NCBI RefSeq assembly: GCF_964194155.1
Contig: NC_135885.1
Span: 116,312,001-116,376,000 of the forward strand
DNA from: Cetorhinus maximus
Taxonomy: Eukaryota
Direction: 5' to 3'
DNA: 64,000 bases
The translations under genes were made by a program, and so were the position numbers. Positions 6,698-45,174 of this stretch are shown here, one piece after another; the stretch's first letter is position 1, and each line of letters begins with the position of its first letter. The notes under the pieces are model-generated. The model did no database searches, was not told where the DNA came from, and worked only from the letters and a program-made list of their open reading frames with translations.

Positions 6698-6889
6698 GTG
6701 GTAGAGGCAGAAACTCTCATCACATTTGAAAAAGAAACATGAGGATATATGCACTTGAGGTGCCCTAACCTACAGGGCTCTGGGCAAGCGCTGGAAGGTG
6801 GGATCAGACTACGAAAATGTTTTTCGGCCAGTATGGATACGATGGGCCAAATGGCTTTCTGCTGTGCTATAATCCTTCTATTTTCCTAT

Positions 6890-7068
6890 GAATGGAATTT
6901 CACAGTCCCCTGCCAGTGGGTTTGAAGGTGGGGGAGCTTGTAAAAATGCAGCACATGGTTTGCCCACCTGCACCCCCCACGACCTGTCTCCCATTTTATG
7001 GGGGACGGTGGAGGCGTCGGGCAACCTGCCCACACTTGAACTTATTGAGACCTTTAAGTGGTCAATTA
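6890..7068. mobile_element. Truncated Harbinger-type MITE end
   Basis: Starts GAATGGAATTTC. Similar to the 5' parts of 19911 and 24874 (aaattgagg..cttaagtgg.caatta motif). Confidence 0.5.
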
Positions 7069-7069
7069 C

Positions 7070-7345
7070 AGTTGTCCCTTTATCCATGTTGCTTGTTGCT
7101 TCCTCAAAAGCTCTAATAAATTGGTTAACCATGATTTCCTTTCTCAAAGCCATTTTGACTCTGTCTGATATTATGATTTTCTAATTATCTTCCCACAACC
7201 TCCTTAATAATGAATTCGAGCAATTTCTCAATGACAGTTGTTAGGCTAACTGGCCTATAGTTTACTGCTTTTTGTCTCCCTCCTTTACTGAATAAAGGTA
7301 TTACATTAGCTATTTTCTAATTCACAGGGACCCTTTCAGAATCCT
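7070..7345 (-). mobile_element. Old CR1 RT fragment
   Basis: Reverse complement gives NYRPVSLT (ctataggccagttagcctaac) and FEEATSNMDKG. Confidence 0.7.
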
Positions 7346-8114
7346 AAGGCATGACTTCCTTCCAGATGGAGGCAAAAATCTTGGTCTTAGCCAATTAACA
7401 ACCAGCCGAGCATTATATAACACCTGACAGGAAACAGGCAATAAGAAATATTTGAAGGAATCCAGAGTTACAGTCAGAGGTCCTGTGGTATGTTAACAGT
7501 GATGTTGGTAGGCTGAATTCAGCTTGGAGCATCGACGAACTGTTGTGAGTTCAGAGGCAGGTGTGATGAGTGAATTCCAGAACCTATATGAGGGTAAAGT
7601 ATCAGAAGAGGCATTGATGTGGTATTTTCATGGGAATGAGGAGTTGTACAGAATCAGTTCCAGGATCAGAAAGTGGACGGAGATATTAAAGGATGCCGTA
7701 AAATGCAGAAGCAGCAGTAGTTGGTTCAATTGGCTCAGGCAAGTGATTTTCTGGCCAGGAACAGACTGAAGCTGAACATTCAGTATAACCAGTGGCCAGT
7801 CACAGAGATTTAAATCTCTCAATCTCAAATGTGATGGGGGAAGGGCTGTAAACTGATCGACGATACTTTAAATATTGCAAAAAGCAGCAGATCAGATACA
7901 GGAGTTGGACCTTATGGTAAGCCAGTACTCCGGAGCCCCTGTTGTGTGAAGGTTACAGTGACCCTTGTTACACCTGCATTATATGCCCATGAAGCTATGA
8001 AGCAAATGGACATTTTTACTCCTAAAAGGCAGCATGGAGTATGGACAATTTACCTTGCCAGGATGTACTCCAGGAGATTTTAAAGACACAGGAACAGACA
8101 TGTCTGGATGTATA

Positions 8115-8274
8115 AAAGCAAAATACTGTGGATGCTGGAAATCTGAAACAAAAACAAAAATACCTGGAAAAACTCAGCAGGTCTGACAGCATCTGCGGAG
8201 AGGAATACAGGTGATGTTTTGAGTCCGTATGACTCTTCATCAGAACTAAGGAAATAGAGAAATTGAGGTGAAAT
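8115..8274 (-). mobile_element. 5'-truncated Penelope-like 3' tail with hammerhead motif
   Basis: Exact 15-bp TSD ATGTCTGGATGTATA at 8100-8114 and 8275-8289. Same tail sequence as 6157, 30905, 42048 and 55241. Confidence 0.9.
8210..8247 (-). ncRNA. Minimal type I hammerhead ribozyme, decayed
   Basis: Sense: AGTT CTGATGA A GAGTC ATACG GACTC AAAAC ATC ACC. CUGAUGA and stem II intact; GAAAC mutated to AAAAC. Confidence 0.7.
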
Positions 8275-9054
8275 ATGTCTGGATGTATATCTGGGGAGTT
8301 ACTTAAAATGTAAATGATCTTCCCAGGTGTTGATTGACTACCCCTCTCCATTTCAATTGAGGAGATTTAAATAACATTGGCTGTTAGAATTGCAGGCACC
8401 ATGAAGATGGAAATACAAATAAAGATATTCAGAAGCTATTCATAACTGGACTGTTGATAGGATATCAAATATCCCCCATTGTGTGATAAATTGCTTAACC
8501 TTCATACCAATTGTGTGAACAATAGAAACATTGATACAATGATTAAATGGCAGAAACTGGCTTAAAAAAAACCCTATTAATTGACACCTTGAAACAGCAG
8601 CAAGCAGTCCGGGACAAACAACGGTGAGAGAAGAGATCTCGTGCAGAAAAGAAAGAACCCTGTCAAGAAATTTATTACAGGCAGAGTGTGGTTAATTCTT
8701 TTTATCTGCAAGATATATCTTCACTACAGGAGCTCGTCTACAACTTCAAGTGGGGAAAATTCAGGAACCTGCTGTTGCAATAATAAGCCATTGTGAGTTC
8801 ATCAACAGAAACCTCCAACCACTATCTTTTCTTCAGTGAACTGCAACATTCAGACCGACAACATTTCCAACTACCATCTTGTTGGATCAGTGTAATGGTG
8901 AATTTTGAACTCTTTAAAAAAAAAAATCAGTGCATGTTACCCTTTTCTGTCATTACCTTTTTTTCTGTGTGTCTGTCTTGCATGAATGAAGGAGTGAGTG
9001 CTGCTGTGATTCAGTTTTTGGGTTTTATGAAATACCCAAAAATGGAATCACAGC

Positions 9055-18930: not shown

Positions 18931-19877
18931 ATATATTTGGGATATTAGCCAATCCCCAAACCATGTCTAAACAGCTACCACACAATAAAACAGATAAGGT
19001 TCCCCTCGTTCTCACTGTCCACCCCACTGGCATCCATATTCAATATATCATCCTCTGCCGTTTCCACCACAACCAGTTTGATGGCACCACCAAACACATC
19101 TTCCCCTCCCCTCCCTTTCAACATTCCACAGGGACTGTTGCCTCCATGATACCCTGCTCCACTCCTTAGTCACCTCCAACACCCATCCCTTTCCTATAGC
19201 TCCTCTTTATACAAGTGCAGGAGATGCAACACCTGCCCTTTTCCTTCCCTCCCCCTTCTCACCATTTAAGTTTCCAAACACACTTTCCAGCTGAAACAGC
19301 GATTTACTTGTACTCCTTTCAATACTGTATTTACTACTCACAATGTGGTCTCCTCTACACCTCAGGGACCAAATACAGACTTGGTGACCACTTTATGGAA
19401 CACCTTCTTTCAGTGGCAAGCACAGCCCTGAGTTTCCTGTAGCTTGTCAGTCCAATTCTATATCTTACTCCCACTCTGACCTTTCTGTCCTTGGCCTGCT
19501 ACAGTGTTCCAATGAAACTCAACTCACCTTTAGACTTTATCGCCTTCAGAACTCAGCATCAAGTTCAACAATTTGACATCATAAACTCTGCCCCCATTTT
19601 GTTTTACATTTTTTCTGGTTCGATTTTTTTTCTCTCATCTTTTTGGATTCCTTTACCTTGCATTTGATGGCTACGATACTACTATTCACACCTCATCCCA
19701 ACACATCTTTTGTATCTTTATTTCTCCCATTACCCTTCCTTTGGCTTTTGTATAATGATATCTTTTGGCCATTTAATCTGTCCTTCACTCCACCCTATCA
19801 CAGGCCTTTCCTTTTGTTACGTTTCTGCCCTCCAACCTTTCACTTGCTCAAAATCTACAGCACTTCGGATTTTCCTT

Positions 19878-19910
19878 AGTTCTGATGAAAGGTCATAGAC
19901 CTGAAACATT
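19878..19910 (+). ncRNA. Minimal hammerhead ribozyme of PLE, disrupted at its cleavage triplet
   Basis: AGTT CTGATGA A AGGTC ATA GACCT GAAAC ATT; the 3' strand GTT AACT is found at 21193 after the inserted MITE. Confidence 0.8.
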
Positions 19911-21192
19911 GGATGGAATTTAATGCTGTCCTCTTTGGTGAGTTTGATGGCAGGGGCAATTATTTCTCACTTAAGGGCCTCATCCTGCTAATGTTGTAAA
20001 GTGCGGGACTCACCATGTGGGGAACATGACAAGCAAACTCATGCGGAAGATTGGGGGGCCCGCTGAGAGCCACAGCCCTGGCCTTTCTGTACAAATCCCT
20101 CTCCCATGACCCCAATCCTATGACCCCATCCCGCCAATCCTGCCAAAATCACCTATGGCCTGGGATCTAGTGACAATACTAATGTAAGAACTTACGGTCC
20201 TGAATAAATTTTAAAAAAAAACTCTCATCTAAGTGGGTATTTCTGCATTTTGCAGGATTTTCGAAGCGGCATTGATTGCCTCTTTTTCTAAACACTTTGA
20301 CCTCTGAACAGTCTTCAGAAACAGCACAGTCACTTAGTTCAGGCTGCCTTCTTCAGATTCCTGAGTTATTAGGTGGTGTCCTGTGCACACCCTTATCTCC
20401 CAAGTCTTTAGAAAAGACCAAGATATGACCCTCAGCAAGATCTAAACCAAAAAACTGACCTCGAGCAGGATGACGAACAGGGTAGGTGGTAACCACCTTG
20501 ATGTTTGGAGTACCTGTCCTGTATCCATTGGTCAGAGTAGTTCCAATAAGGCAATTGATACTGGGTACGCTATCAGGCCCCCCCAAAAAAGGGTTTATAT
20601 GGGGAGGTCCTGCTGAGGGATCGTATACTGCTGAGGTACGGCTGAGGTGCTGGTGAGGTGGCAGTGCTCTTTGTGCAGCTGTCTTCTTCAGATGGAAGAT
20701 TGATCAGAGGAGAAGGAGGAAAATTGAGACATTGAGAGAAGAGTTTCCTAACACTTCGACTAGAGAACGGAATGCTGTTATCACAAGCTGTTACGGGTGG
20801 TATGCTTTTTTTCTGTCTAATTAGCTAAAGTATCGTATATGAACTGTTGTTTCTTAATAAACACAATAAACTATCTTAAAATTACATACGAATAGTCAAC
20901 TGCCTATGTAGGTATCTGTGGACCCGAATCCAGAAGTCTTACACTAAGCCTTGGGTGGGTGTAACATTGGCAGCAACTGCCTCCTCCCTAGTGGCACTGA
21001 TGTTCAATGTGGCTGCCGGCATCCCTCAGCAGGTGGGACTTTGGCCCCCAAGGTACTTGATTCCGGGAAAGGCCCGCCACTGTCCAATTAAGTGCCTGAA
21101 TGGCACTTAATTTGGCGTGCCTTCCTAAAAGAGGCAACACGGGGCTCTCGCCAGCTGGGCTAGGCCCCCGTTGCTTCCATTAAATACTGCCT
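19911..21192. mobile_element. Harbinger-type MITE containing a solo LTR
   Basis: Ends GGATGGAATTTAATG / CATTAAATACTGCCT; TSD ATT/GTT (CpG-decayed GTT); same family as 24874-25563. Confidence 0.8.
20183..20966 (+). mobile_element. Solo LTR (about 784 bp)
   Basis: TGTAAG...GTAACA termini, AATAAA signals near 20856-20870, interrupts the MITE. TSD not clear. Confidence 0.6.
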
Positions 21193-21225
21193 GTTAACTC
21201 TTCACATAGGCTGCCCAACCTGTAT

Positions 21226-22337
21226 GGAATAAAAGGGACAGTAGCAACGTGGATGCAAAATTGGCTGAAAAATAGGAAGTAGAGAGTAATGGTCAATGGA
21301 TATTTTTTGGGATGGAGGAAGGTTTGTAGCAGAGTTCCCCAGGGCTTGTTATTGGGATCCTTGCTTTTCCTGATATATATTAATGATTTGATCTTGGTGT
21401 GCAGGGGACAGTTTCAAAGTTTGTGGATAATAAGAAGCTTGGGACTGTTGTGAACTGCGAGGAGGATGGTGTGGAACTTCAAGAGGACATAGACAAGTTG
21501 GTGGGGTGGGCAGATAGGTGGCAGATGAAGTTCAATGCTGAGAAGTGTGAGGTGATGCACTTTGGTAGGAAAAACATGGACAGACAAAATAAAATAAAGG
21601 GTGGAATTTTGAAGGGGATGCAAGAGCAGAAAGACCTGGGTGTATATGTACATAGATCATTGAAGGTGGCAGGACAATTGGAGAGAGCAGTTAATAAAGC
21701 ACATCATATCCTGGGCTTTATTAATAAGGGCATCAAGTACAAGAGCTGGGAGGTTATACTGAATTTATATAAGACACTTGTTAGACCTGAGCTGGAGTAT
21801 TGTGTACAGTTCTGGCTGCCACACTATAGGAAAGATATGAACACATTGGAGAAAGTGCAGAAGAGGTTTACAAGAATGGCTCCAGGGATTAGAAACTTCA
21901 GCTATGAGGATAGATTGGAGATATTGGGACTGTTCTCCTTGGAGTGAAGAAGGCCAAGAGGGGATTTGATAGAGATGTTCAAAATCATGAGGGGGCTGGA
22001 CAGATTTGATAGGGAGAAGTTGTTCCTGCTCACAAAAGGATCAAGAACGAGAGGGCACAGATTTAAAGTGATTTGCAAAAGAAATAAATGTGACGTGAGA
22101 AAAAACTTTTTCAGACAGCGAGTGGTTCGGGTTTGGAATGCACTGCCTGGAAATGTGGTGGAGGCAGGTTCAATAGAGGCATTCAAGAGGGCATTAGATG
22201 ATTATTTAAATAGAAACAATGTGCAGGGGTATGGGGAAAAGGCGGGCAATGGCACTAAGTCATAATGCTCATTTGGACAGCTGGTGCAGACACGATGGGC
22301 TGAATGGCCTCCTTCTCTGCTGTTAAAATTCTGTGAT
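21226..22337 (+). mobile_element. CR1 LINE 3' portion, relatively young
   Basis: ORFs 21399-21947 and 21966-22265 encode the CR1 ORF2 C-terminus; 7-bp TSD CCTGTAT at 21219-21225 and 22338-22344. Confidence 0.92.
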
Positions 22338-24873: not shown

Positions 24874-25563
24874 GAGCAGAATTTAATGCCCTCCCCCGAG
24901 GTGAATTTGGACGTGGGGAGGGCATTTAATTGGGCGGTGGGGGGCAGCCTTTCTCCCTTTGCCAAAATTAAGTCTGGGGTGGGAAGGATTCTGGACAGCC
25001 TTCCTGACCCTTCCCAACTTGCTAAATTGAGGTCATTTGGTGGGTAATTAATGCCCACTTAAGGGTCCATCCCACCACCACTGTTGCCATACAGAGAACC
25101 TGAATAGAAAATCCTGCGGGTTGCTTATCGGATCCTGGTAGGGGTTAGGAGGGGGATTGAGGTGTCCCTCATTGTCAGGGACCTGGCATCACTTTCTGCT
25201 GACCATTTCTGTTGACACCCCTTCCCCCCTTGCCAGTGACCTCGAACCTGCGACCTGCATCCCACCCTCACTGGGATCCAGCACTGATCCTCGGCTTCTT
25301 GGCGCAGTGCCATCAGCAGCCACAACACCTCCTTGGCACTCATGAGCACTGAGGGCTGTTGGCCTCTGATTGGCCGATGACTCTTGGCAGATGGGACTTC
25401 TGCCCTGAGGTCCTTGATCCTGGGGAAGGCCTTCCACTGGCCAGTAAAGTGCCTGAGTGGCACTTAATGTGGTGGGCCTTCCCTAAAAGAGGCAACGCTA
25501 CGCTCTCACTAGCTTTGCAGCCAGAAGGCGAGGCCCCTTTCTCCTCTCCATTAAACACTGCCC
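24874..25563. mobile_element. Harbinger-type MITE
   Basis: Ends GAGCAGAATTTAATG / CATTAAACACTGCCC; exact 3-bp TSD ATC (24871-73, 25564-66). Confidence 0.85.
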
Positions 25564-28159: not shown

Positions 28160-30085
28160 TTCTTTTATTCATTCAAGGGATGTGGGTGTTGTTGGCTAAG
28201 CCAGCATTTATTGCCCATTCCTAATCGAGAAGGTCGTGGTGAACTGCCTTCTTGGACCACTGGAGTCCATGTGGTGTAGGTATACCTACAGTGCTGTTAG
28301 GGAGGGAGTTCCAGAACTTTGACCAGTAACAGTGAAGGAACGGCAATATATTTCCAAGTCAGGATGGTGAGTGGCTTGGAGGGGAACTTGCAGGTAGCGG
28401 TGTTCTCATGTGTCCTCTGTCCTTGTCCTTCTAGATGGCAGTGGTCGTGGGTTTGGAAGGTGCTGCCTAAGGAGGCTTGGTGAGTTCCTGCAGTGCATCT
28501 TGTAGATGGTACACACAGCTGTCATTTTGTATTGGTGGTAGAGGGAGTGAATGTTTGTGGATGGGGTACAAATCAAGTTGCCTGCTTTGTCCTGCGTGGT
28601 GTCAAGCTTCTTGAACATTGTTGAAGCTGCACTCATCCAGGCAAGTGGAGAGTGTTCCATCATACTCCTGACTTGTGCCTTGTAAATGGTGGACAGGCTT
28701 TGTGGAGACAAGAGGTGAGTTTCTTGTCGCAGGATTCCGAGCCTCTAAGCTGCTCTTATAGCCACAGTATTTATATGGTTAGTCCAGTTCATTTTCTGAT
28801 CAATGGTAACCCCCAGGATGTTGATAGTGGGGGATTTAGCAATGGTAATGCCATTGAATGTCAAGGGATGATGCTTAGATTCTCTCTTGTTGGAGGTGGT
28901 CATTGCCTGGCATTTGTGTGGCACGAATGTTACTTGCCACTTGCCAGCCCAAGCCTGGATATTGTCCAGGTCTTGCTGCATTTGGACACAGACTGCTTCA
29001 GTATCTGAGGAGTCACGAATGGTGCTGAACCTTGTGCAATCATCAGTGAACATCCCCACTTCTGACCTTATGATGGAAGGAAGGTCATTGATGAATTGAT
29101 GAAGGTCAAGATGAAGATGATTGGGCCTAGGACACTGCCCTGAGGAACTCCTGAGGGATGTGCTGGAAGTGAGGTGATTGACCTCCAACAACCACAACCA
29201 TCGTCCTTCTTGCTAGGTATGACTCCAGTCAGTGAAGAGTTTTCCCCCTGTTTACAAATGACTCCAGATTTGCTAGGGTTCTTTGATGCCATACTCTGTC
29301 AAATGCTGTCTTGATGTCAAGGGCAATCCTCTCAACTTGTTCTTGGAATTCATCTCTTTTTGTCCATACTTGAACCAAGGCTGTAATGAGGTCAGCAGCT
29401 GAGCGATCCTGGTGGAACCCAAACTAAGCATCAGTGAACAGGTTATTGCTAAACAAGTGCCGCTTGATAGCACTGTAGGTGACCCCTTCCACCACTTTAC
29501 TGATAATGGGGCGGTAATTGGCTGGATTGGATTTGTCCCACTTTTTGTGTACAGGACATACCTAAACAATTTTCCACATTACTGGGTAGATGCCAGTGTT
29601 GTAGCTGTCCTTGAACAGCTTGGCTAGGGATGCGGCAAGTTTTGGAGCACAAGTCTCTGGTACTGTTACTGAAAGATTGACAGGGCCTTTGCAGTATACC
29701 ATGCCTTCAGCTGTTTCTTGATAGCATGTGGAGTGAATCGAATTGGCTGAAGACTGGCACCTGTGATGCTGGTGACCTCAGGAGGAGGCCAGGATGTATC
29801 ATCCATTTGGCACTTCTGGCTGAAGATTCTTGTAAAGGCTTCAGCCTTATCTTTTGCACTGATGTGCTAGGCTCCCAATCATTGAGGGTGGGATATTTGT
29901 GGAGCCTGCCTCTCCAGTGAGTTGTGAATGGTGGTGGATTATTAAACAACCAGATGTGGAAAGACTGCAGAGTTTAGATCTGATCCATTGGTTGCGGGAT
30001 CGCTTAGTTCTGTCTATCGCTTGCTGTTTGGTACGCAAGTAGTCCTGAGTTGTAGCTTCACCAGGTTGACACCTCATTTTTAGGG
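28160..30085 (-). mobile_element. Second LINE family (CR1/L2 group), RT to 3' end
   Basis: GVPQGSVLGP, FINDLPSIIRSEVGMFTDDCT, IYKAQVRSMMEHSPLAW; 3' tail ..cacatccc..gaatgaataaaa at 28160-28190. Confidence 0.9.
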
Positions 30086-30334: not shown

Positions 30335-33300
30335 AACTTCAAAGTGTTGAAGAGACAACAACAATGCTAGAGTTTTTTTTCTACTGTAGAGTACATCCAC
30401 CGATATTGATTTAGTTTGTTGGAAAAGTACCCCACTGGCTTCTCTATCCCTAATTTATCATCTTGTAATTGAGCTGCACCTACCCCCAAGTCACTGGCAT
30501 CAACCGCCATTTTAAAAGGTTTAGTAAAGTCAGGGGTGGTCAACACAGGTTCATTTATTAAGATTGCCTTCAGCTTTTCAAAGGCTGCTTGGCATTCAGC
30601 CGACCATACCACTTATGCCTGTTTTCTTAACAAATTGGTCAGAGGTACAGCTATGGTGCTGAAATTAGGCACAAAGTTCCTATAAAACCCACACATTCCC
30701 CAAAACCTCATAATTTCTCATTTGATTTTAGGAATGGGCAATTCTATTTGGGTGTTCACTTTTGATGTTTTCGGCAACGCCTGCCGTTGTCCGACAATGT
30801 GACCTAGGTAAGTTACTCTTGCTTTTGCAAATTCGCTTTAGGCCAGATGTATGACCAAGCCCACTAACTGCAATTGCTTAAATAGGTCCTGTAAATGCTT
30901 AGATAGAAGCAAAATACTGCAGATGCTGGAAATCTGAAACAAAAACAAAAAATGCTAAAAAAACTCAGCAGGTCTGACAGCATCTGTGGAGAGAAAGACA
31001 GAGTTAATGTTTCCAGTCTGTATGACTCTTCAAAAGAGTAACACGGACTCGAAACGTTAACTCTGTCTTTCTCTCCACAGATGCTGTCAGACCTGCTGAG
31101 TTTTTCCTGCATTTTTCATTTTTGTCCTCTAGATGCTTTACATGCTCTTCCCATGTGTTACTATATATGACAACAGCATCTTAATAAACCACCCAGTTAG
31201 GTACTTCAGCTACGATTCAATTCAAATGTCTCTGGAATGTAGCTGGGGTGTTTTTAAACCCAAATGACATGACGAGACATTGATATAATCCACTTGGTGT
31301 AACAAAGGCGGATATTTCTTTAGCCTTTGATGTTAATGGCACTTGCCAATACGCCTTCAATAGGTCAATTTTAGAAAGAAATGACGCACTGCCCACCCTA
31401 TCGATGCAATCCTCTAGCCGAGGAATCGGATACAAATCTGTCCTCGTTACTATATTCACTTTCTGGTAGTCTATACAAAATCTAGTGGATCCATCCGGCT
31501 TAGGAGCCAACATGACCGGTGAGCTCTAGCTGCTTTGACTAGGCTTGATCAATTTATTTTCCAGCATATATTTGATCTCTGTTTCTAAAAGAGCTCGCTT
31601 TTCTGGGCTCAACCGATGCAGATGTTTTATCGGCACTGCGTCTCCTACGTCCACATCATGTTTAGTTAATGTAGTACATCCAGGTGTATCCCTACAATTT
31701 TCCTTATACTTCCTAAGTAACCTTATTAAATCTTCTTGTGGTCCTTCCTCTAAATGTGAGAACACAGTGTCAAACAGTCCCATTATTTTCGTATTGGCTA
31801 GTTGAATTGTAGGTGGTTCACTTTGTGTGCTGTCTACTTCTCCTTCTAACTGACTTCTACTGTTTTTGGCATCCTCCACTACTCCTACCATCATCTCCTC
31901 TGCAATAATACTGCTTCAACATGTTTATGCGACATAACCGTTTCTTCTTCCTATGTTCAGGAGTATCTATCAGGTAAGGCACTGCACTAACTCTCCTAAC
32001 TATCTTCTAGGGGCCACTGAATTTCGCTTTCAGGGGTTCACCTGCAAAGATAACAATACCAACACTTTGTCCCCTGTTTGGGAGGTTCTAGTTGTAGCAT
32101 GTTTGTCTGCCCATTCTTTCATTTTGGCTTGGGAAATTTTTGAATGCTCTCCTGCTACTTTACATGCCCCTGTGAGACTTTCTAGAAACATGGACACATA
32201 ATCCAACATGGAGGATTCTTCTTTCGGCTTCAGGAACTTTCCTTTAATCAAGTTTAATGGATCTCTTTTTCTCATGATCGCAGATCAATTCAAATGGACT
32301 AAATCCAGTAGATTCACTAGGAGAATCTCTGGTATCGAACAGTAAGAAATCTAATCATTTGCCCCAATCCTTTGGGTATTCATGGCAATAGGTCATAATC
32401 ATGGTTTTGAGAGTCTGATCGAATCTCTCCAAAGCTCCCTGTGTCTGTGGGTGATAAGCGGTAGACTTTAGTTGTTTGATACCCAAATTGCTGATTATAT
32501 GCTGGAAAATCTTAGGCATGAAGTTCAAACCTTGATAAGATTGTATTTCAATTGGTAGGCCATAAGGAATGAAAAACTGAGTTAACTTTTCTACTACCAC
32601 CTTCCTGTAATTGCCCTTAAAGGAATAACTTCTGGAAATCGTGTGATCATATCCATGATTGTAAGGATATATTGATGTCCTGCTTTTGTTTTGGGTAATG
32701 GCCCTACACAATCTACTAATACCCGACTGAATGATTCTTCAAAAAACTGGTATAGGTATTAAAGGTGCTGGTTTGATTACATGTTAGAGTTTACTTACTG
32801 CCTGACATGTATGACATCCTTACAAAATGGTGCTGGTTTGATTGCATGTTGGGGTTTAGCTACTCCCTGACATGTATGACATGCCTTGCAAAATTGCACT
32901 ATGAGCATATTAAGTCTTGGCCAGGTAAAATGCCTGTTTATCGATGCTTGGGTTTTCTGTATTCCTACATGTCCCGCCATTGGGATTTCATGTGCTACTT
33001 GCAATATCTCCTTAAAATATTTGGGCAGTATCACTGTCTGATGAACAACCATCCATTCCTCATCCACAGGTCTGATGGGGGTGATGGGAGAAAGGGTGTC
33101 TCCACTTCCTCATCAGAACTCTGTTTTTAAGCTCTCCGGAACTCCTTCAGCCTCAGCTTCAGTGTGAGCTGACTGTGCTAACTTGTTTAACTCTGGATCT
33201 GCTTTCTGAGCCTCAATTAAGGAAGACGTGCCAAACACTTCCTTTGAATTATCCTCATCCTTAAAGGAAGTTTTGGCTACTCTAACACCTGCTCATGGTA

Positions 33301-35030
33301 CTACTTTGACCTCTGGTAATGGACTTTGTTCAGCCATTGCTCTGGTCACCACACACGATGGAAAAATACCAGGAACTTGTCCTTGTGACTGCTGTCTCTT
33401 TAGCCTCTCTCGGACTTTCTGTAATTATGGGTGAAGCTATAACCTTCACTCCTGCCAAATCATTCCCCAGGAGTAAATCAACTCCATCCTAGGGTAATTT
33501 CTTAACTACTCCTACAACCACTGATGTAAGCAACAAATCAAATTCCAATTACACTTTGTACAATGGGACCAGGATATACTCTCCACTTATCCCATTTACC
33601 AATACTTTAGCTTTCATTGAACTCTCCGGAGGTAAAACTAGGTTCTTCTCCTGTGTCTCTTAATATAGTTATGGGTTTAGCTGCATCATTTGATGAAAAA
33701 GGGGTTATCTTCCCTTTAGACAAAAACCCTTTATATCTCTCATCTACTTTATTCACTTCACCTGCATTCACAGCGGTGTTTACCTCCAGACCCTTTTGTA
33801 GTTAAAGCTACAATTTGATCCGTGGCGTTTTCTTTTTGAGTTCCCTTTTCAGAATCACCCTTACGAATCCCAATAAGTCCCATTGGCTTCCCTCCCAACT
33901 TCCAGCATTCTGAGCGAATGTGTCCCACTTTGTTACAGTGGAATTTCATTTCCACTCTCAGTACCTTCCTTCCCGATCTGAGGAGGAGATCTGAAGGTAT
34001 TCCCAGCTATCCATTCTTTACCCTGGCTACTTGCCTCCCTTTCATTCTCCCACTTTCTATCCTTTTCAAATTTATGGGGGTGATGGAAAAGAAGTTTGGT
34101 TTTATGGATCAGCTCATAATCATCAGCCATTACTGCTGCCTGTCTGGCAGTTGGAACCCTTTGGCCTTCAACATGGGTTCTTGTTACAGAAGGTAGGGAA
34201 TTTTTCAATTCTTCCAAGAGAATGGTCTCTCTGAGAACTTCATAGGTGGTTTCAACTCCTAATGCTCATATCCACCTGTCAAAGCTGTTTTGCTTAAGTC
34301 GTTCAAATTCAATGTACGTTTGTCCAGGCTGTTTCCTTAAATTTCAAAACTTTTGTCTATATGCTCAGGAACCAACTCATATGCACTCAAAATGGCCTTT
34401 TTCACCACATCATAATCCCTAGAAACCTCCTCTGACATTGAGGCATAAATTTCCTGTGCTCTACCTGTCAATTTGCTCTGCATGGGCAATGTCCAGTTTT
34501 CCTTTGGTCAATTCACCTGTTTAACTATCTTCTCAAATGAAATAACGAATGCTTCAACATCTCTGTCTTCAAATTTTGGAAGAACTTGTACAAATTTAAA
34601 TATCTCCCCACTGGATTCTGATTTGGACATAAATCCTGCCTCACCTCCTGGTGTCTCATTTTTAACTGCCAGAATTCTAAGCTGGAACTCTCTTTTTTCT
34701 CTTCTCCTTTTCTAACTTCGCCATTTCTAATTCCCTTTCTTGTTTTCTTTCTCTCTCCTGCCTTTCTGCCTGTTGCCTTTGAAATGCTCCCTCTCTTTCC
34801 TTCTCTTTTTCTTTCTGTGCCCTTTCTTTTTCTGCTGCCTCTAGCTCCATTTTTTTTATTTGCATTTGAATTTGAATTTCAGCCCATTCCAATGAACCAT
34901 CCCCTGGAGAACTCAGTCTCTCAGGTATTCCTTCCAGTTTTAAATGCTGTGCCATCTCTTCAATTATCTCTGCCTTCCTAGCTTTGGCAGGCAATCCTAT
35001 TCTTAATTTACTTACTGAAGAAATCACATC
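30335..35030 (-). mobile_element. Gmr1-like gypsy retrotransposon internal region (gag-PR-INT-RT-RH), no LTRs seen
   Basis: gag (VPKFEDRDVEAF..KLTGRAQE; knuckle HCNKVGHIRSEC); protease ILRDTG near 33655; integrase HEIPMAGH..CHTC and STAYHPQTQGALERF (33067-32355); RT RFCIDYQKVN..YPIPRLEDC (31513-31217); RNase H MAVDASDLGVGA (30612-30367). Confidence 0.92.
30905..31123. mobile_element. Palindromic Penelope-like tail insertion in Gmr1 RT
   Basis: Inverted arms centred near 31032 within the hammerhead; imperfect TSD GTCCTGTAAATGCTT / GTCCTCTAGATGCTT. Confidence 0.85.
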
Positions 35031-35251: not shown

Positions 35252-35326
35252 TTAAAACAAAAGCAGCAAGTGCTGGAAATACTTAGCAGATCTGGCAGCG
35301 GCTGTGGAGAGAGGAACAGAGTTAAT
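35252..35326 (-). mobile_element. Penelope-like tail, cut by the large Harbinger (continues at 45062-45090)
   Basis: gctggaaatacttagcagatctggcagc..gagaggaacagagttaat | agc attttgagtc..atgact matches the tail consensus gagttaacgtttcgagtc..atgactc. Confidence 0.7.
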
Positions 35327-35593
35327 GGACAGAATTTTCTGTTTTGTAGACTAAGTACAGTGGTGGGCAGGAAAATCGGTGTGATTCCCATTGGGCAGCA
35401 GGGTGCATGACCTTCCACCTTTCAGCTCATTAATTATGCATCAAATCACATGGGTCTGCAGTGATTTATCTGCTCTGCTGTTACCTCATGGGGTAAAATA
35501 TGTCCTGGTGCATATGTAAACAGCACCGGCATACACATGTATTCACTGCAGTCCAGGTGTGTTGGGCACTTCTTCAGAGCAGTAGCCAAAAGA

Positions 35594-38500
35594 ATGAAAC
35601 CCTCCGCTCCACGGTTCAGTAATGCCTTCCTGGATTCTCCTCCACACTGCCCAGGAAAGACAAGAGGTCCTCTCACCTTGGGATGGGAGAAGGAGGCCCT
35701 CGCACCTGACTATGCTGGCCTGAGAGGGGGTTGCCAGAGAGGTCAGTAGCTGTGCCAAACAAAAAAGGACTGTCCTGCAGTTCAGGAAGAGAATGAATGA
35801 TCTGATCGACTCTGATCTACGCACTCCAAACTCTCACTCTCTTAAGGGCATCAGGCAGTCTAATGGTTAGAGTCCACAGGGATATCATACAGTATCAGCA
35901 GATGGGACAGCAGCACTGATTGTCTGCCAGCCACTTTACCATCTCATCATGTAAGGTCCTGCACAAACGTCTTTAGCCCGTACTGATGAGGGCGCAGCAC
36001 ACACAGCAGACATGCATGCTTCTGAAATGCTCTTTTAGCTGTAGTGCTCACAGTCAATCCAACTATCTGTATGCAGGATAAGATAGCCCGCAACAGAAGG
36101 GAGAAGGACAAGACCGGAGGTGGGACCCCAGAGTAGCGGGACCTCTCTACCTTTGCGGACAAGGTGGCTGAGTTAGCTGGTGAAGACAGAGATTGTTCCT
36201 CTGCGTAAGGTGAAATTAGCCTCCCCCAACAAGTGAGGATGCATCCTGTATAGATTGACAACATGCAGACACTGAATTTGCATGATATATAATGTAGGAG
36301 ACTGCCTAGTCAATCACTAATTCTCTCTTCTCCTGATTCCTCGTACCAGTAAGAAATGGCAGAAGATGAGGTCCAGCCCCAGCCCCCAGACCACCGCCAA
36401 TGAGGTTGCTGAAGATCCATTTATAGAAGAGCTGTCACTATATTCACCTGCACACTCCACCAGCGCAGATACACACACCTTGGTTGGCCCTAGTTCAAGA
36501 GTAGGCTTGGGTTCACTTGGTTGGTGATCACCTCCCAGACACGTGTCTACAACAGACGGAGGCATTGACAGCTGAGGTCGCTGACTCTTGGAGGACTGCT
36601 GGGCCCCGCGGAATCTGAGTCCGATGATGAGCCTCTGCAATTGGCCTTCAGAGACATGTTGGAGATGCAAAGACGGGAGGGGGAACATCAGGCAGAGCTT
36701 TTAGAGGCCATCACCAGACTTGAATGAAGGATGGAGAAGTCTGCCACGTCCTGTCTGATGTCATAGCTCCAGCATACGAGCACATCGAACTCTCCATTGG
36801 AAGAAGGGCAGCAGCCTTGGAGACCCAGGACCAGCAGAATGCACAGTTTCTACCAGATTTGCACTCGGGTCTGCACTACATCACTCAAGCCATGCGTACA
36901 TTCCAGCTACATTCCAGCATTGGCTAGGCAAGAGGGGGATGGGGCACCTCGATCCCCCCAGATGCTTTTTCTCCTCAAGGAGTCAGGGAGGGGACCTTGG
37001 GCACCTAAAATGAGGAAGGGTGTCAGCTGGACAACTCGGGACCATCCACCCAGGAGTCCCCTAGGTTGACTTGGTGTTCCAAATCCCCCCTGCCTGTGAT
37101 CTCATCAATTCCAGCAGGCCAAGCCCTGCACCTTTTTTTCTTATTCACTCATGGGATGTGGGCTTTGCTGGCTGGGCCAGCATTTATTGCCCATCCCTAA
37201 TTGCCCTTCTTGAACCGCTGCAGTCCATGTGGTGTGGGTACACCCACAGTGCTGTTAGGAAAGGGGTTCCAGGATTTTGACCCAGTGACAGTGAAGGAAC
37301 AGTGATATATTTCCAAGTCAGGATGGTGTGTAGTTTGGAGGGAATCTTTGATGTGGTGGTGTTCCATGCATCTGCTGCCCTTGTCCTTCTAGATGGTAGC
37401 AGTCATGGGTTTGGATGATGCTGTCGAAGGAGCCTTGGTGAGTTCCTGCATCTTGTAGATGGTACACACTGCTGCCACTGTTAGTCGGTGATGGAGGGAG
37501 TGATTGTTTGTGGATGTGGTGCCAATCAAGTGGTCTGCTTTGCCCTGGATGGTGTCAAGCTTCTTGAGTGTTATTGGAACTGCACTCACCCAGGCAAGTA
37601 GAGAGTATTCCATCACACTCGTGACTTGTGCCTTGCAGATGGTGGACATGCTTTGGGGAGTCAGGAGGTGAGTTACTCACTGCAGGATTCCTAGCCTTTG
37701 ACCTGCTCTTGTAGCCACAGTATTTATATGGCTAGTCCAGTTCAGTTTCTGGTTGAGCGTAACCCCCAGGATGTTGATCGTGGGGAATTCAGCAATGGTA
37801 ATGCCATTGAATGTTAAGGGGCAATGGTTAGACTCTTGCTTGTTGGAAATTGTCATTGCTTGGCACTTTTGTGTGGCACAAATGTTACTTGTCACTTGCC
37901 AGCCCAAGCCTGGATATTGTGCAGGTTTTGCTGCATTTGGACATGGACTGTTTCAGTATCTGAGGCGTCATGAGTAGCGCTGAACATTGAGCAATCATCA
38001 GCAAACATCCCCATTTCTGACCTTATGATGTAAGGGAAGTCATTGATGAAGCAGCTGAAGATGGTTGGGCCTAAGACACTACCCTGAGGAACCCCTGCAG
38101 TGATATACTTGAACTGAGACGATTGACCTCCAACAACCACAACCATCTTCCTTTGTGCTAGATATGACTCCAACCAGCAGAGAGTTTTCCCCCTGTTCCA
38201 TTGACTCCAATTTTGCTAGGTCTCCTTGATGCTACACTCGGTCAAATGCTTGATGTCAAGGGGAGTCACTCTTACCTCACCTCTGGAGTTCAACTCTTTT
38301 GTCCATGCTTGAACCAAGGTAATATGGTTAAGAGCTGAGAGACCCTGGCGGAACCCAAACTGACTGTCAGTGAGCACGTTATTGCTAAGCAAGTGCCACT
38401 TGATAGCATTGTTGATGACCATTTGCTGATGGTCCACTGTAGACCGATGGGGCAGTAATTGGTTGCGTTGGATTTGTTCTGCTTTTTGTATATAGGACAT

Positions 38501-38900
38501 ACCTGGACAATTTTCCACATTACTGGGTAGATGCCAATGTTTTATCTGTACTGAAACAGCTTGGCTAGGGGCACAGTAAGTTCTGGAGCACAAGTCTTCA
38601 ATACTATTGCACTAATATTGTCAGGGCACAAAGCCTTTGCAGTGTTCAGTGCCTCCCAGTTGTTTCTTGATATCATGTCGTGAGTCGAATTGGCTGAAGA
38701 CTGGCATCTGTGATACTGGGACCGAGACGGATGTCAATGTTCAGTCCCAGAGCAGGAGACCCTGAGCAGGCTGGGACCCTCCAGGTCTCAGGCCCTCAGA
38801 CAACGCGTGTGAATTTAATTTCAGACAACAGTGCATAGCTGTCAGCAGGCTGCCTCCATCTCTGCTGTGGATGTCAGGGCTGCACCAAGGCGATAGTGTG
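35594..38900 (+). pseudogene. Harbinger Myb/SANT-like DNA-binding protein gene, multi-exon, disrupted
   Basis: KPSAPRFSNA..EVSSCAKQKRTVLQFRKRMNDLI (exon 1); acceptor at 36076 then DKIARNRREKDKTGGGTP; last exon split by a LINE. Confidence 0.8.
37132..38730 (-). mobile_element. CR1/L2-group LINE (same family as 28160-30085)
   Basis: ITAGVPQGSVLGPTIFSCFIND..MFADDCS; ICKAQVTSVMEYSLLAW; same 3' tail at 37132-37200. Confidence 0.9.
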
Positions 38901-40569
38901 TGACAAAATTAAAAGTTCAGAAAGCACTATGGTGGCATGGATGATCAATCACTATATATAAATTTCACCTTTGAAAATGTATTTTGGTTTTATCCCTGAG
39001 TCACAGGTGCTGAATGATTCTTTGATGTGATGCAATATCCCGCATTAATTCAAGGGTGCAAAGTGGCCCCCCACCCCGATGAACTCACCCCTGTCCCTCC
39101 GTTCCGTGAAGTCTCACTCAATCTCATCTCAGTCAATCGCCTTTAGTTCCAGATTCTCAACATAAGCAAAGGCACTTCCAACATGAGAATGATGGTTGGA
39201 CAATGTGCATGTAAGCCTTACAACTGAGGATGACATTCTGTGACTTCATGTGAATTGTTCTTGCTAGGCTAGTGATTATCCTGATGCTGTAGCTTTGAAG
39301 TCTGTTCTGTGTGCATGTCTCATGAACCACGCCAAAGTCTTTTCACCCACGTCCAATTTGCAATGGCCTTCATTTTATGATTGTGAGGTTTTGGTTAAAG
39401 TCTTAATCATCGTTGAGCACCATAGCCTTTCATGACTCTTTGCAACATTATTTCATTAAGGCAGAACAGTACTCCTTCATTAGTTCCCATAATCCCCATG
39501 CATGAGCGATGGAAGTTGTTTCCAGTTATTGACATTTGAAATGTCTGCTGCACGGAAATTGTGTGTGTGATGTCAGTGGTGTGTGCTCACCCTGATGATG
39601 CTGGCCAATGACCTCTGAGAATGCTGCTCTGCTTCTGAATGGCTGCCTATCGCTGCTTGACAGAATTCCTATGTTGGGTTACAGAATGCCAATTGATATC
39701 GATTTCCTGACATGATAGTGTAGTCAGTGTCTTAGACTTTATAGCAAATATTGACCTTTGTGATATGGACAGTGTCGAGAACTGTAATGATATGAAAACA
39801 ATGCTCCAGAGCATCTCCTGAGTGCTCAACTGTATCTATGAGGGGAATAAGTTAGCTTTGACTGCTGTGTCAAAAGTGACTGGGCCACATCTCTCCTAGA
39901 TGCCAAGGCAATGGAGGACGTGAACTTGGGAAGCTTCCAAAAAAAGCAGGGTAATGAGATTTTGTCAATAATCACACAATGCTACTGCTGAACCACTCTG
40001 TGAGTATGATGCTAACATCACTCGCAGGTTTGAGTCCGTGCTGTCATATGACAGATTACTGCGCCTGATGTCCGATGTCTTCCTGTATCAGGATGCGGCC
40101 TTTGCATTAATCATGCATGACAGCTAGCATTTGTAGAGATGGTGCTGTCAGGATGTAGCTCCATCTTCAGACCGACAAGTGATAACAAATGACATCTGAT
40201 GTCCCTATTTAAGCTGTCTAACTGAGCTCCTTTAACACTGGCATGAGTGCTTTGATATGTGCAGTAGCGTTTATGCTTCTTGAAGGCTGCCATGGCCAAT
40301 GAATTTTTCGCACCATGGTTGAAAGGACTGCTCTATGGCTAATTGTTTAGGTGTGAGCACTGGTGGAGTATTATCCCAATACACAGCGGCCACATGCTCC
40401 CTCAGATACTGCGCCTTCCAAGGATGACCCCATCGTTAAGAGTTGGAGGTGTCTTATGCTTCTTCCATTCTCATTTGGAGATTTACCTTTTGTGAGATGC
40501 TGAAAATGACAATGAAGGTCTTGTTATCTCCCCTGCATCGATGTGTGAAGAGGACTGAACTCGTAGCAC

Positions 40570-41620
40570 CTTACTCCACCTTAAATCTTGTCACCATGAA
40601 GTTGTCATGGCATGTCTTCTGCATCGTCTCCGTGCAGTGGCATCCTCATTTGCTCCTCTGAATCCTCACCCTCCTCAAAGTCACCCCTTCAACATCCTCC
40701 TCTTCAATGAGATGTGCAGCTCATCCATGTCTCCATGTGGCAACTCATCCCCCTTTTGCAGCGCTAAGTTGTGCAAGGCACAGCAAAAAATGATGATGCG
40801 GGGCACCCTCAGTGGTGAGCACTGGAGAGCCCTGCCTAAACGGTCCAAGCATCTAAAATGCATCTTTAAGAGGCCAATAGCCTGCTCTACTAACACCCTT
40901 GTGGCTGAATGTTTTCCATGGATGGTGAACGGGCATCACTAGCTACGTCTTTAGGTGGCAGGCTTTATCACCAAGGAACCAACCCTCCATGCACGGAGGG
41001 CCCTCAAAGATCTGTGGCTCCTGCAAGTGACTCAACATATAAGAGTCATGGGAGCTCCCAGAGTATCTAGCATAAACATGCATGATCTGCTTGGTGTGAT
41101 CACAGATGAGCTGGATGTTGAGAGAGTGAAATACTTTTCTATTAGTGAATTGCACAGTCTGTTGCCAGGGAGCTCTGAAGGCCACATGCAGGCAGCAGAT
41201 GATGCCCTGCACTTGCAGGAAGCCTGGGAGCACAGCGAATCCCACAGCTCTGGCAGCCTGGCTTGCGTAATCCATGGTGAACAAGACTTAATGATAAGCT
41301 TTATTGGAAAGGGCATCGGTCACGCCCTTTATGCCGACTGTGAGATTCCGCAAAGGTCCCGAGTGCAGCCCTGGAAGGATCCACTGGTAAAAAAGTTGAG
41401 TGAGATGGTAACATTTGCAAAAGTCAGTTCGTGCCTTCAGAGAGCAACTGGCATTGGACTGCCTCCAAGTCCATGCGGCATCAGATCCTCACGGAGAATT
41501 GGGCAAATGTGAGCCAACACATCCCTAGTCAAGTGAGGGCATCTACAGCACTGTCCTTTCAGTCATCTCAAGGTATGAGCTGCGTCTTCTGTAGACCCTT
41601 GGTCGTGCCAAACATCTCCG
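40570..41620 (-). pseudogene. Harbinger (HARBI1-like) DDE transposase, frameshifted
   Basis: NFFTSGSFQG; VQGIICCLHVA; NRKVFHSLNIQLICD; YSGSSHDS; FLGDKAC; VEQAIGLLKMHFRCLD; CCALHNLA. Confidence 0.92.
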
Positions 41621-42153
41621 TTGATTTGATCCCTCTTCGTAAGCATCTGGATCTTACTGGCACTAGTTCCTCAGGTCGATGGTGTTCCTTGAGCTATGCC
41701 AAATGGCGACAGGCCCTTCTTCTCCTCACTCGCATCAAAGCTATCAAGAAGGCAGCACTGCCTGCAGCTTGCATTCTCCACTCCTCCTTGTACCTCTGAA
41801 GAATAGATTTGAGACATCATTGCACCTTCCCCTTGAATGCTCTATCACTATCTCCAATCTAGGAAGCCAATGTCCTTCCCTCAGTCTATGGCATCCCCAG
41901 GCCACCTCTGCAGCTGAAGCACATCCTGAAGGTCCACAGGTGGCTGAGCATCCCTCTCTGACATGACTGTGCCTTAACAAAGAGGCTCTTGATCAGGGTG
42001 CATACACTTATGTGCGGTAACCCTCAGTCAGCCTATTTTTAACTTACACAAATATAAAAACAAAAAACTACTGCGGATGCTGGAAATCCAAAACAAAAAC
42101 AGAATTACCTGGAAAAACTCAACAGGTCTGGCAGCATCGGCGGAGAAGAAAAG

Positions 42154-42192
42154 AGTTGACGTTTCAAGTCCTCATGACCCTTCAACAGAACT
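42154..42192 (-). ncRNA. Minimal hammerhead ribozyme variant
   Basis: Sense AGTT CTGTTGA A GGGTC ATGAG GACTT GAAAC GTC AACT: stem I AGTT/AACT, stem II, palindromic ACGT, GUC triplet. Confidence 0.75.
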
Positions 42193-43384
42193 GAGCAATA
42201 TCGGAAGAAGGGTGAAATATAAGCTGGTTTAAGGTGGGGGGGGAGAGAAGTTGGGGGGGAGGTGGGGGTGGTTGTAGGGACAAGCAAGCAGAGAAAGGAG
42301 CAGATAATCAAAAGATGTTACAGATAAAGGAACAAAGAGGTGTTGAAGGTGGTGATATTATCTAAATGAATGTGCTAATTAAGAATGGATGGCAGGACAC
42401 TCAAGGTACAGCTCTAGTGGGGGTGGGGTGGAAAGACTGACAGGGCATTACAGGTATAGATTTAAAAATAATGGAAATAGGTGGGAAAAGAAAAATCTAT
42501 ATAAATTATTGGAAAAAACAAAAGGGAGGGGGAAGAAACGGAAAGGGGGTGGGGATGGAGGACGGAGTTCAAGATCTAAAGTTGTTGAATTCAATATTCA
42601 GTCCGGAAGGCTGTAAAGTGCTTAGTCGGAAGATGAGGTGCTGTTCCTCCAGTTTGTGTTGGGCTTCACTGGAACATTGCAGCAAGCCAAGGACAGACAT
42701 ATGTGGGCAAGAGAGCAGGGTGGAGTATTAAAATGGCAAGCGACAGGGAGGTTTGGGTCTTTCTTGCGGACAGACTGCAGGTGTTCTGCAAAGCGGTCGC
42801 CCAGTTTACGTTTGGTCTCTCCAATGCAGAAGACCTGCATTGGGAGCAACGGGCCACCCTGCTCTCTTGCCCACATATGTCTGTCCTTGGCTTGCTGCAG
42901 TGTTCCAGTGAAGCCCAACGCAAACTGGAGGAACAGCACCTCGTCTTCTGACTAGGCACTTTACAGCCTTCCAGACTGAATATTGAATTCAACAACTTTA
43001 GATCTTGAACTCCCCCCTCCATCCCCACCCCCTTTCCGTTTCTTCCCCCTCCCTTTTGTTTTTTCCAATAATTTATATAGATTTTTCTTTTCCCACCTAT
43101 TTCCATTATTTTTAAATCTATACCTGTAATGCCCTGTCAGTCATTCCACCCCACCCCCACTAGAGCTGTACCTTGAGTGTCCTGCCATCCATTCTTAATT
43201 AGCACATTCTCTTAGATAATATCACCACCTTCAACACCTCTTTGTTCCTTTGTCTATAACATCTCTTGATTATCTGCCCCTATCACTGCTTGCTTGTCTC
43301 TACAACCACCCCCCCTCCAACTTCTTTCCCCCCACCACCCCACCTTAAACCAGCTTATATTTCACCCTTCTCCTGATATTGCTC

Positions 43385-43423
43385 AATTCTGTTGAAGGGT
43401 CATGAGGACTCGAAATGTCAACT
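43385..43423 (+). ncRNA. Minimal hammerhead ribozyme variant (second arm)
   Basis: AATT CTGTTGA A GGGTC ATGAG GACTC GAAAT GTC AACT. Confidence 0.7.
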
Positions 43424-45174
43424 CTTTTCTTCTCCGCCGATGCTGCCAGACCTGCTGAGTTTTTCCAGGTAATTCTGTTTTTATTTTTAACTTACCTTCA
43501 TTAACCTAGACACTAACTTAGCCTTGTACTAATGTCATGACTGTGAGCATTGTGCCCTGTAAGCCATGACCATTGAAATGAGAGTATCGAGGTTTGTAGT
43601 GTGCATGTAGCTTCAGTCCAGCAGCTGTGGCACTTGATTGTTTGATCCTCCTTCCCATTTTACATATCTCTGGCAGGGACAGGTGCCCAATCAGATCTCA
43701 TCGAATGTAGCACCAAATCTTAATGGATTGCTGCATGAATGCAAACCATGAGTGAATGTGCTATAGTCCTTCAATGGGCATTTGATCCACAAAAACAGTA
43801 CTCAACTGAGACTTGTAATTCATGTCTTGAGCACATAATTATTATGTTGCCCCTTCAATTGTCCCAAAATTGTATTCGGGAACTCCTCCCAATTGCCTTG
43901 AGATCCCTCACATATCATTTTTTTCACATATCTTTTTCCAGCTGCGGCATTGCTGGTTAAGGGCGAAGATGGTGCTGTTATATTTTGTGAACGCCACCAA
44001 TACCTTCCCATCTCCCCCGGTCACCACAACTTCCTCCCATTCTCCTCCACTGTCACCATTTCCTAATTCCCATCCCTCCTGTAACTATTCAGCCTCCCCC
44101 GTTACCCTTGACCCCATCGTTGTGCACATGGATATCCCTGTGCACCCCCCATTCCCTTCAACGTTGATGTCCCCATGCTATTTGTTGATCTCATCCCTCC
44201 CTTTTTTGAGGCCGCCTACACTCTCGCTTTCAGATACCCATCCCATGAGACCTACTGAATACAGATGCCTCCCATCAATGTTACTATACCCCCTGTTTGC
44301 CAAACCACACAACCAAATGCCTTGTTTCACTGACCACACCCTGTGCATGACTGTCACTGCCCAGCAAGGCCCTCCCCTACTCAGGGCCAGGATCAAGACA
44401 TGCGTGCCGTGCAGAGCCCTCTAACATGTCCTGCACAGCCCCAGGTCAATCTGTTATAGCTGCCCCCGACAACGTGGTCTCAGTCCCAGGACAGTCCCTG
44501 ACTCCTCTTTGAACAGTCTTATAAATCTTGCCCCTGGACAGTCTTTCACTACTCCACCCCTCCTCACCAGTCATGCCTCTTCCCCCCTTCCCTCTCATGT
44601 TCCACTGGCCCAACGCCAGTCATGCCTCCATCTTCCCCCTTTCCCTCTGGTGTTGTCTGACAGGCACCAGCCTTGATGCAGAATCGGAGAAGCACTGAAA
44701 TATCGCAGCACCACTGTTAAAGGTAGACAAAAGTAGCGTCTGCATGCCTCAAAGCTGTCGATGAAGTAAGGCTCACCAGGCGCACGCCACTTAAATAGAG
44801 TCATGAAACAGACCGTTCAAATTATCTGCTGGCTGGGCACTTAAATTGGAGGGGAATGGGAGCACTCATGAGATGCAAGTGAATGCAAATGTGGTTCCTG
44901 ACATAGGTCAGCAGGAAAGTCTTTAATCCACCATCAAAGTCGGGAGAACAAATTCCAAACTGATTTCCTGAAGGCAGGAAACTGACTTTTGCAAACGTTG
45001 CAAAGTTTCTGCCCCCACCAGCCACGATTCTGGCCACTACCAAGAGCAGAAAATTCCACTCAGCATTTTGAGTCAAATATGACTTTTCTTTAATTCTTTT
45101 TTAAATCTCATTTTAATGTTCATTTTTACAGATTAGTGTGACCATCCTTCCTTCTTGCTTCTAGTGGGAACATG

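Follow-up and report, generated by a model that had tools for sequence, protein, structure and literature searches.

A nested-insertion hot spot for Harbinger transposons at one nucleotide of the hammerhead motif of Penelope-like elements

The DNA analysed here, hereafter the window, is a stretch of 64,000 nucleotides of contig NC_135885.1 (assembly GCF_964194155.1, positions 116,312,001 to 116,376,000 of the forward strand), lying within a genome of 4.0 Gb, in which a Harbinger DNA transposon (35327-45061) interrupts the terminal-repeat tail of a Penelope-like element (PLE) at a GTT triplet of its predicted hammerhead motif. Insertion at this nucleotide recurs genome-wide and is a real, strong nested-insertion hot spot, which is mostly due to a known mechanism, with a twist added by CpG decay and a modest unexplained excess. 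Harbingers with GGGYRGAATTTT ends have inserted at the hammerhead GTT repeatedly and independently, most probably owing to a preferred palindromic target of ~15 bp that this spot matches by chance. The hot spot is not ribozyme-specific: one-nucleotide hot spots are also found beyond the hammerhead, in a CR1 long interspersed nuclear element (LINE) and in an unrelated repeat.

Two interrupted hammerheads in the window

At the left junction GAGTT AAT closes the antisense PLE tail at 35326 and GGACAGAATTTTC starts the Harbinger at 35327; at the right junction the Harbinger finishes with GAAAATTCCACTC at 45061, and AGC ATTTTGAGTC..ATGACT follows from 45062. An earlier note on this DNA had proposed that the tail is broken at the first of these points and resumes at the second, and both junctions were confirmed. 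The features of this site and of a second one used for comparison are the following.

35252..35326, minus strand: 3' part of the PLE terminal-repeat tail, ending in the duplication copy AAT (plus strand, 35324-35326); nhmmer match to positions 29-104 of the tail model, E 6.5e-17
35327..45061, no strand assigned: decayed two-gene-type Harbinger with 13-bp terminal inverted repeats (TIRs) GGACAGAATTTTC / GAAAATTCCACTC; relatives having both ends are colinear with it at 64-79% identity
45062..45090, minus strand: second duplication copy (AGC, 45062-45064) and 5' part of the same PLE tail, with decayed hammerhead stem II and core
19874..19910, plus strand: part of another PLE tail (hammerhead core and stem II), with the duplication copy ATT (19908-19910) at its end
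19911..21192, no strand assigned: non-autonomous Harbinger-type element of another family, ~1.3 kb, TIR GGATGGAATTTAATG; right end 80% like window 25387-25514
21193..21235, plus strand: duplication copy GTT (21193-21195) and resumed decayed PLE tail

The tail part at 35252..35326 is the one downstream of the predicted cleavage site. The segment beyond the element does belong to the same tail: its first 34 nt from 45062 align to the PLE tail in the expected register, with a score equalled by only 0.17% of 20,000 random genomic 34-mers, and the score rises from 58.1 bits, with the left part taken by itself, to 78.4 bits (tail model positions 5-103) for the rejoined empty site. The two ends also belong to one Harbinger family, as they are paired in 7 of 20 relatives found via the left end (right end at most 9.9 kb away), 6 of these 7 with a 3-bp duplication of at most one mismatch. 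Among all bracket-paired elements such a duplication is present in 108 of 135. The TIRs are those of PIF/Harbinger, 13 bp long, starting with G and the same in the relatives; the usual length is greater, 25-50 bp (stated in the part of PMC9179366 drawn on here). The duplication copies read AAT and AGC, against AAC, and the mismatches at both window sites are transitions, mostly at CpG positions.

The claim that a second, different element occupies the same hammerhead triplet holds as well: the two elements represent different families, since no blastn match joins them at E<=1. With an estimated genome-wide occupancy of 1.5-2.4%, two occupied among the 8-12 tails of one window has p ~0.006-0.03; such a pair is uncommon, yet in a genome of 4 Gb many windows should show one.

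The host tail can be recognised as a PLE terminal repeat because at locus L115 it flanks, on both sides, an open reading frame of 682 aa with reverse transcriptase (RVT_1, E 1.4e-06) and GIY-YIG (E 3.7e-04) matches, both just under cut-off; in L176 GIY-YIG is over cut-off. The L115 element (6556-8601, minus strand) is a young copy with a stop-free frame and inverted tails on either side. Tail copies spanning the site number 0.077/kb in 376 kb of arbitrary regions and 0.109/kb in chromosome 1 loci, that is ~300,000-435,000 copies. Judged by sequence, the tail fits a minimal type I hammerhead, with CUGANGA, stem II, GAAAC GUU and a 4-bp helix I; among 65 cores matched by regular expression, AGTT (20) or AGCT (15) precedes the core and faces AACT after the triplet, with CGTT in 22 and CGTC in 9. 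Since the GUC variant (9/65 cores) keeps the same register, the duplicated triplet coincides with the predicted N-U-H cleavage triplet, the cleavage site being read from register only. Scanning the window with Rfam gave no match to a hammerhead family, the hits being to hairpins and due to chance, and tail-to-tail inverted PLE tail pairs at 6162-6321 and 30910-31126 gave chance miRNA-like hairpin scores.

The inner part of the window Harbinger contains the following features.

35600..36250, plus strand: likely Myb/SANT-like second-gene remnant, by resemblance to the eye and position only
37126..38745 (approximate), minus strand: nested fragment of a CR1-type LINE, which came later than the Harbinger insertion; RVT_1 E 1.4e-11 at 37892-38215, missing in relatives
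40943..41287, minus strand: Harbinger DDE transposase fragment; Pfam DDE_Tnp_4 E 3.9e-08, over the curated cut-off
42048..43481 (approximate), no strand assigned: nested PLE stub in fold-back form, having two tails plus a GIY-YIG C-terminal remnant; inverted arms, 80-83% identity to the L115 PLE

The earlier note had described a 9.7-kb autonomous-type element. A Harbinger with a DDE_Tnp_4 fragment it is, but its transposase is in broken pieces and its length is due to the LINE fragment and the PLE stub, which were inserted later, as both are absent from relatives otherwise colinear with it; without them it measures ~6.7 kb. The region at 35600..36250 is kept in relatives, and a Myb/SANT-like domain gave no Pfam match in 4 window fragments and 4 from relatives. 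The nested LINE, which we take to be CR1, shares 81-89% identity with window 28494-29686. A 14-bp direct repeat (42034-42047 and 43482-43495) brackets the stub. Nesting is reciprocal, a PLE stub within a Harbinger within a PLE tail, and PLE activity therefore spans the Harbinger wave. In longer PLE copies (window 42143-42189 and 43380-43430) the core reads CUGUUGA, A6 being replaced by U, and the triplet is GUC. Among 29 other copies of the left end of this Harbinger family, none lies in a PLE hammerhead. A long terminal repeat retrotransposon remnant lies at window 31217-34265 (minus strand; RVT_1, integrase zinc-binding and a weak SCAN match).

Recurrence at the GTT triplet across the genome

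Junctions were searched genome-wide as a 16-nt tail anchor followed by an exact TIR within 30 nt, which gave 134 matches for the first tail anchor and none in the control, and they were assigned to sites by eye. Among the 100 listed of these 134, 64 fall clearly on the GTT site (plus 4 ambiguous), 23 on a site 6 bp off (plus 4 ambiguous) and 5 on further positions; with the anchor on the opposite side of the tail the counts are 31 for the GTT site, 24 for its 6-bp neighbour and 4 for other positions (n=59). With genome-average denominators (~79,000 exact TIR ends and ~25,000 anchors), the GTT site is enriched 346x over uniform (95% CI 276-427). Exact Harbinger ends are ~1.75x denser in arbitrary chromosome regions (13 in 376 kb) than the genome mean, and for this reason ~200x is the safer value. 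Unselected Harbinger ends lead to 190-270x (7 of 339 at the triplet). By extrapolation, with a wide error, ~7,000 insertions sit at the triplet, in ~2% of tails.

Several Harbinger families are found at the hammerhead triplet, in both orientations and each with its own duplication; these three properties, the duplications being private to each copy, indicate that the insertions are independent. A TWA duplication centred in GTTAAC was rejected, because TTA/TAA fits just 1 of 100 and 1 of 59 rows and the duplication lies on GTT. In L044 one tail seems to have been struck twice: after a Harbinger at the neighbour site come AGAGTTAAT and a further TIR-like start at the GTT site.

The suggestion of a recurrent targeting of one mobile element by another is thus upheld as to recurrence, the same-nucleotide insertion being repeated genome-wide, while the word targeting is an overstatement: ~98% of unselected ends lie elsewhere, and the position is predicted without PLE flanks. 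A target-specific transposon would place most of its insertions in its target, and only ~2% of Harbinger ends use the hammerhead. Taken alone, same-nucleotide nesting in abundant repeats is no evidence for element-to-element targeting.

Target preference, CpG decay and competing explanations

The target was modelled as a 15-bp palindrome, trained first on 142 and then on 275 non-PLE ends, the latter being those left once PLE flanks and 27 recurrent flanks were excluded. In flanks of ends chosen by their TIR alone, the half-site shows A (-7), A/T (-5) and C/T (-4); outside PLEs it is (A/T/G)(A/G)A(A/C/G)(A/T)(C/T), followed by a 3-bp duplication loosely centred on A/T. Averaged over 157 intact tails, the model gives its highest rank to the GTT site (36x) and its next to the 6-bp neighbour (34x), and these are the two observed peaks. 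The first model had placed at the top, together with the GTT site, a site ~40 bp beyond the hammerhead; this was predicted before junctions were counted, and the outside site afterwards received ~27/34 and 12/19 of them.

The extended symmetric preference also predicts hot spots in other repeats. In a CR1 LINE chosen as a control for its similar predicted strength, 18 of 18 junctions fall on two predicted positions, 6 bp apart (nominally 55x and 79x; one junction pair looks duplicated). A search for GAAAC flanks designed to exclude PLEs gave 265 junctions, and one unrelated repeat with a near-ideal target site accounts for 30 of the 100 listed, 11 of these 30 loci being confirmed by blast; its enrichment is ~125-250x for ~64,000 copies, a number estimated from 6 matches in 376 kb, and its heat is roughly that of the hammerhead triplet. 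Loci of this repeat are L141:5415-5524, L245, L258, L259, L319 and L327. Among the 59 non-PLE insertions with both flanks, 21 fall in sites that make up 0.11% of positions, an in-sample figure; the strengths of the two half-sites are uncorrelated in them (rho -0.13, p 0.33, n=59). Outside PLEs the GAAAC half-site is 21x enriched (model 20x). This half-site belongs to the conserved catalytic core, and that it is a good half-site in itself is likely why the duplication coincides with the predicted cleavage triplet. In the proposed mechanism, a symmetric transposase complex would read both half-sites and make a 3-nt staggered cut.

Two further recurrences were observed. Two independent Harbingers lie at one position of a 3' tail resembling a short interspersed nuclear element (L108:3886 and L131, minus strand, 2731), where only one half-site fits the model (G at -4); and in L110, L137, L144, L168, L089 and L197, TIR-like sequences with recurrent flanks in a ~680-bp MITE family (miniature inverted-repeat transposable elements) are internal TIR remnants or a self-insertion hot spot.

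The state of the CpG at the site bears on the choice of target. In the 157 intact tails it is CG in 77, TG in 33 and CA in 26. Where a site is occupied and both ends are present, A stands in both duplication copies in 12 of 22 cases and TG in just 2; set against CA in 26 of 157 tails, this gives an odds ratio of 4.7-6.1 (Fisher p 0.003 and 0.0002), and the model predicts 4.1. Rows from the sense side, read by eye (n=31), give CA 20, TG 4, CG 4 and other 3. About half of the insertions were likely made into copies that were already ATT, because independent decay after insertion would rarely give A in both copies. The effect of ATT against the measured background is 2.4-4-fold. Copies whose CpG had apparently decayed beforehand (GTT to ATT) are over-represented ~5-fold, as predicted by the model, which scores ATT copies 4x above GTT copies. 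CpG deamination of the hammerhead ACGT palindrome to ACAT would improve the target ~4-5 fold. Both window elements, each keeping G in one duplication copy, were likely inserted at GTT.

Several observations weigh against an explanation by sequence preference. The GTT peak is under-predicted, at 36x raw and ~70x after correction for a ~2-fold compression of the model (measured on 59 pairs, with 4 dropped as nested, PLE or recurrent), versus 200-350x observed, and when the model is sharpened with an exponent of 1.25 or 1.5 the predicted peak comes to just 49-54x. The GTT site is ~7x hotter than the outside site when both are counted in the same anchored copies (86 vs 12), whereas the model gives ~2.3x; the minor sites are over-predicted, positions 26, 39 and 90 being rarely occupied. 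The AGAGTT right half-site is only 3.5x enriched outside PLEs (15 non-PLE of 24 rows), under the 5.7x of the model; the enrichment in the CR1 and other-repeat controls is about that predicted or lower; and all enrichments compare repeats and Harbingers irrespective of their relative ages. After density correction, the neighbour and outside PLE sites are within ~2-fold of prediction, which the LINE control does not exceed. An excess of about 3-fold at the GTT site therefore remains beyond the sequence model. Its likely causes are model noise, repeat age, differences among subfamilies (the site ratio is 2.8 vs 1.3 between anchors) and DNA shape; it is likely that DNA shape or a non-additive recognition of overlapping palindromes contributes.

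This residual excess also leaves some room for an explanation in which sequence sets the position and a PLE-specific factor boosts the triplet, be it accessible chromatin, a protein bound to the terminal repeat or an RNA-DNA hybrid of self-cleaved PLE RNA. PLE sites exceed prediction and the CR1 and other-repeat controls do not, and the duplication is exactly the predicted N-U-H triplet, right after which the 5' end of a cleaved RNA would start. We nevertheless regard such a factor as unlikely: the largest family has no orientation bias (6 vs 11), minor tail positions are not raised (5 of 100 listed rows), CpG-decayed copies, which lack the 15.2-16.2 palindrome, are preferred, and the dependence of the ratio between GTT and neighbour sites on the anchor (2.8 or 1.3) points to subfamily sequence. 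That a PLE-specific mark, namely an RNA-DNA hybrid or a bound protein, steers Harbingers to the exact predicted self-cleavage position, one element disabling the ribozyme of another, is quite improbable; if true, it would explain the ~3-fold excess.

Insertions at the triplet might instead be retained rather than made more often, if selection favoured breaking a self-cleaving motif, for example in introns. An insertion would part helix I from the core and so inactivate the motif. Selection, however, would not pick one nucleotide, and other core positions are rarely occupied; hot spots of equal type occur beyond the ribozyme and in other repeats; already-decayed copies are preferred; and single-motif minimal PLE hammerheads are described as lacking detectable cleavage (in the part of PMC4209133 drawn on here). 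We give this reading very little credence. Still less is to be expected from cruciforms extruded by fold-back PLE pairs and attracting the transposase: 44 of 116 intact tails (38%) have an inverted partner within 250 bp, but so do 8 of 22 occupied GTT sites (Fisher p=1) and neither window site, and the idea was rejected on these counts. The amplification of one ancient insertion, as a composite or by segmental duplication, is almost certainly wrong, for although the ~680-bp MITE group makes up 17 of 22 paired insertions at the site, its members average ~76% identity and are found in either orientation, no fewer than 5 more groups or singletons are present, and the neighbour-site duplications are private to each copy (AAA/AAA, ATA/ATA, TGA/TGA), which implies that the hosts had diverged before insertion; the idea is refuted by the diversity of families and by these private duplications.

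Comparison with known systems

Dada and Pokey are target-specific DNA transposons that insert repeatedly at one nucleotide of a multicopy RNA-coding sequence. They do so almost exclusively in their target, unlike the Harbingers described here, in which only ~2% of ends are concerned. What the hot spot offers is a natural and very large data set on Harbinger target choice, in which an estimated several thousand insertions, independent of one another, share one nucleotide of a repeat with known ancestral sequence. It also suggests that the methylation-driven decay of one element may build better landing sites for another, for which no report was found in the open-access literature searched; nor was one found of Harbingers in PLE hammerheads among open-access papers, with subscription papers and Repbase notes outside the search.

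The papers compared below are cited for the parts of them drawn on here. In PMC9179366 Harbingers are not found in elephant shark and a check of other cartilaginous fish is called for; if the present genome is that of a shark, its hundreds of thousands of Harbinger ends bear on that question. The preference for TAA in plants differs from the preference found here (PMC5738225). The closest likeness in target is with zebrafish Harbinger3_DR, highly specialised for a 15-bp palindrome (Sinzelle et al., 2008, as cited in PMC3016246): in both cases a 3-bp duplication lies inside a palindromic target of ~15 bp, and the half-sites of the published consensus AAACACCWGGTCTTT fit the preference described above. 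Unlike in Harbinger3_DR, the central triplet is here weakly constrained (A/T in the middle, neither CWG nor TWA being fixed) and the preference is shared among many families that have one type of TIR; the likeness described is one of target.

The host motif resembles the minimal hammerheads that metazoan PLEs carry in their terminal repeats, or pLTRs (Cervera and De la Pena, 2014, PMC4209133), in the core boxes, the extra base before G10.1, the G10.1-C11.1 pair, the palindromic 15.2-16.2 and the 4-bp helix I, and the portion of that paper considered makes no mention of DNA transposons inserting into the hammerhead. As in the nested hot spots of human transposable elements (Levy, Schwartz and Ast, 2010, PMC2836564), insertions pile up at specific positions, mostly explained by integration motifs in the host consensus; that study differs in dealing with human elements only, and harbinger, CpG and deamination are absent from its main text. 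Finally, the palindromic motif of the P element, in a staggered-cut model, predicts hot spots, local spacing and no strand bias (Linheiro and Bergman, 2008, PMC2577343). The P element belongs to another superfamily with another duplication length, and its insertions were experimental, free of post-insertion decay; all three predictions are nevertheless seen here, including a spacing of 6 bp between hot spots, in PLE as in CR1.

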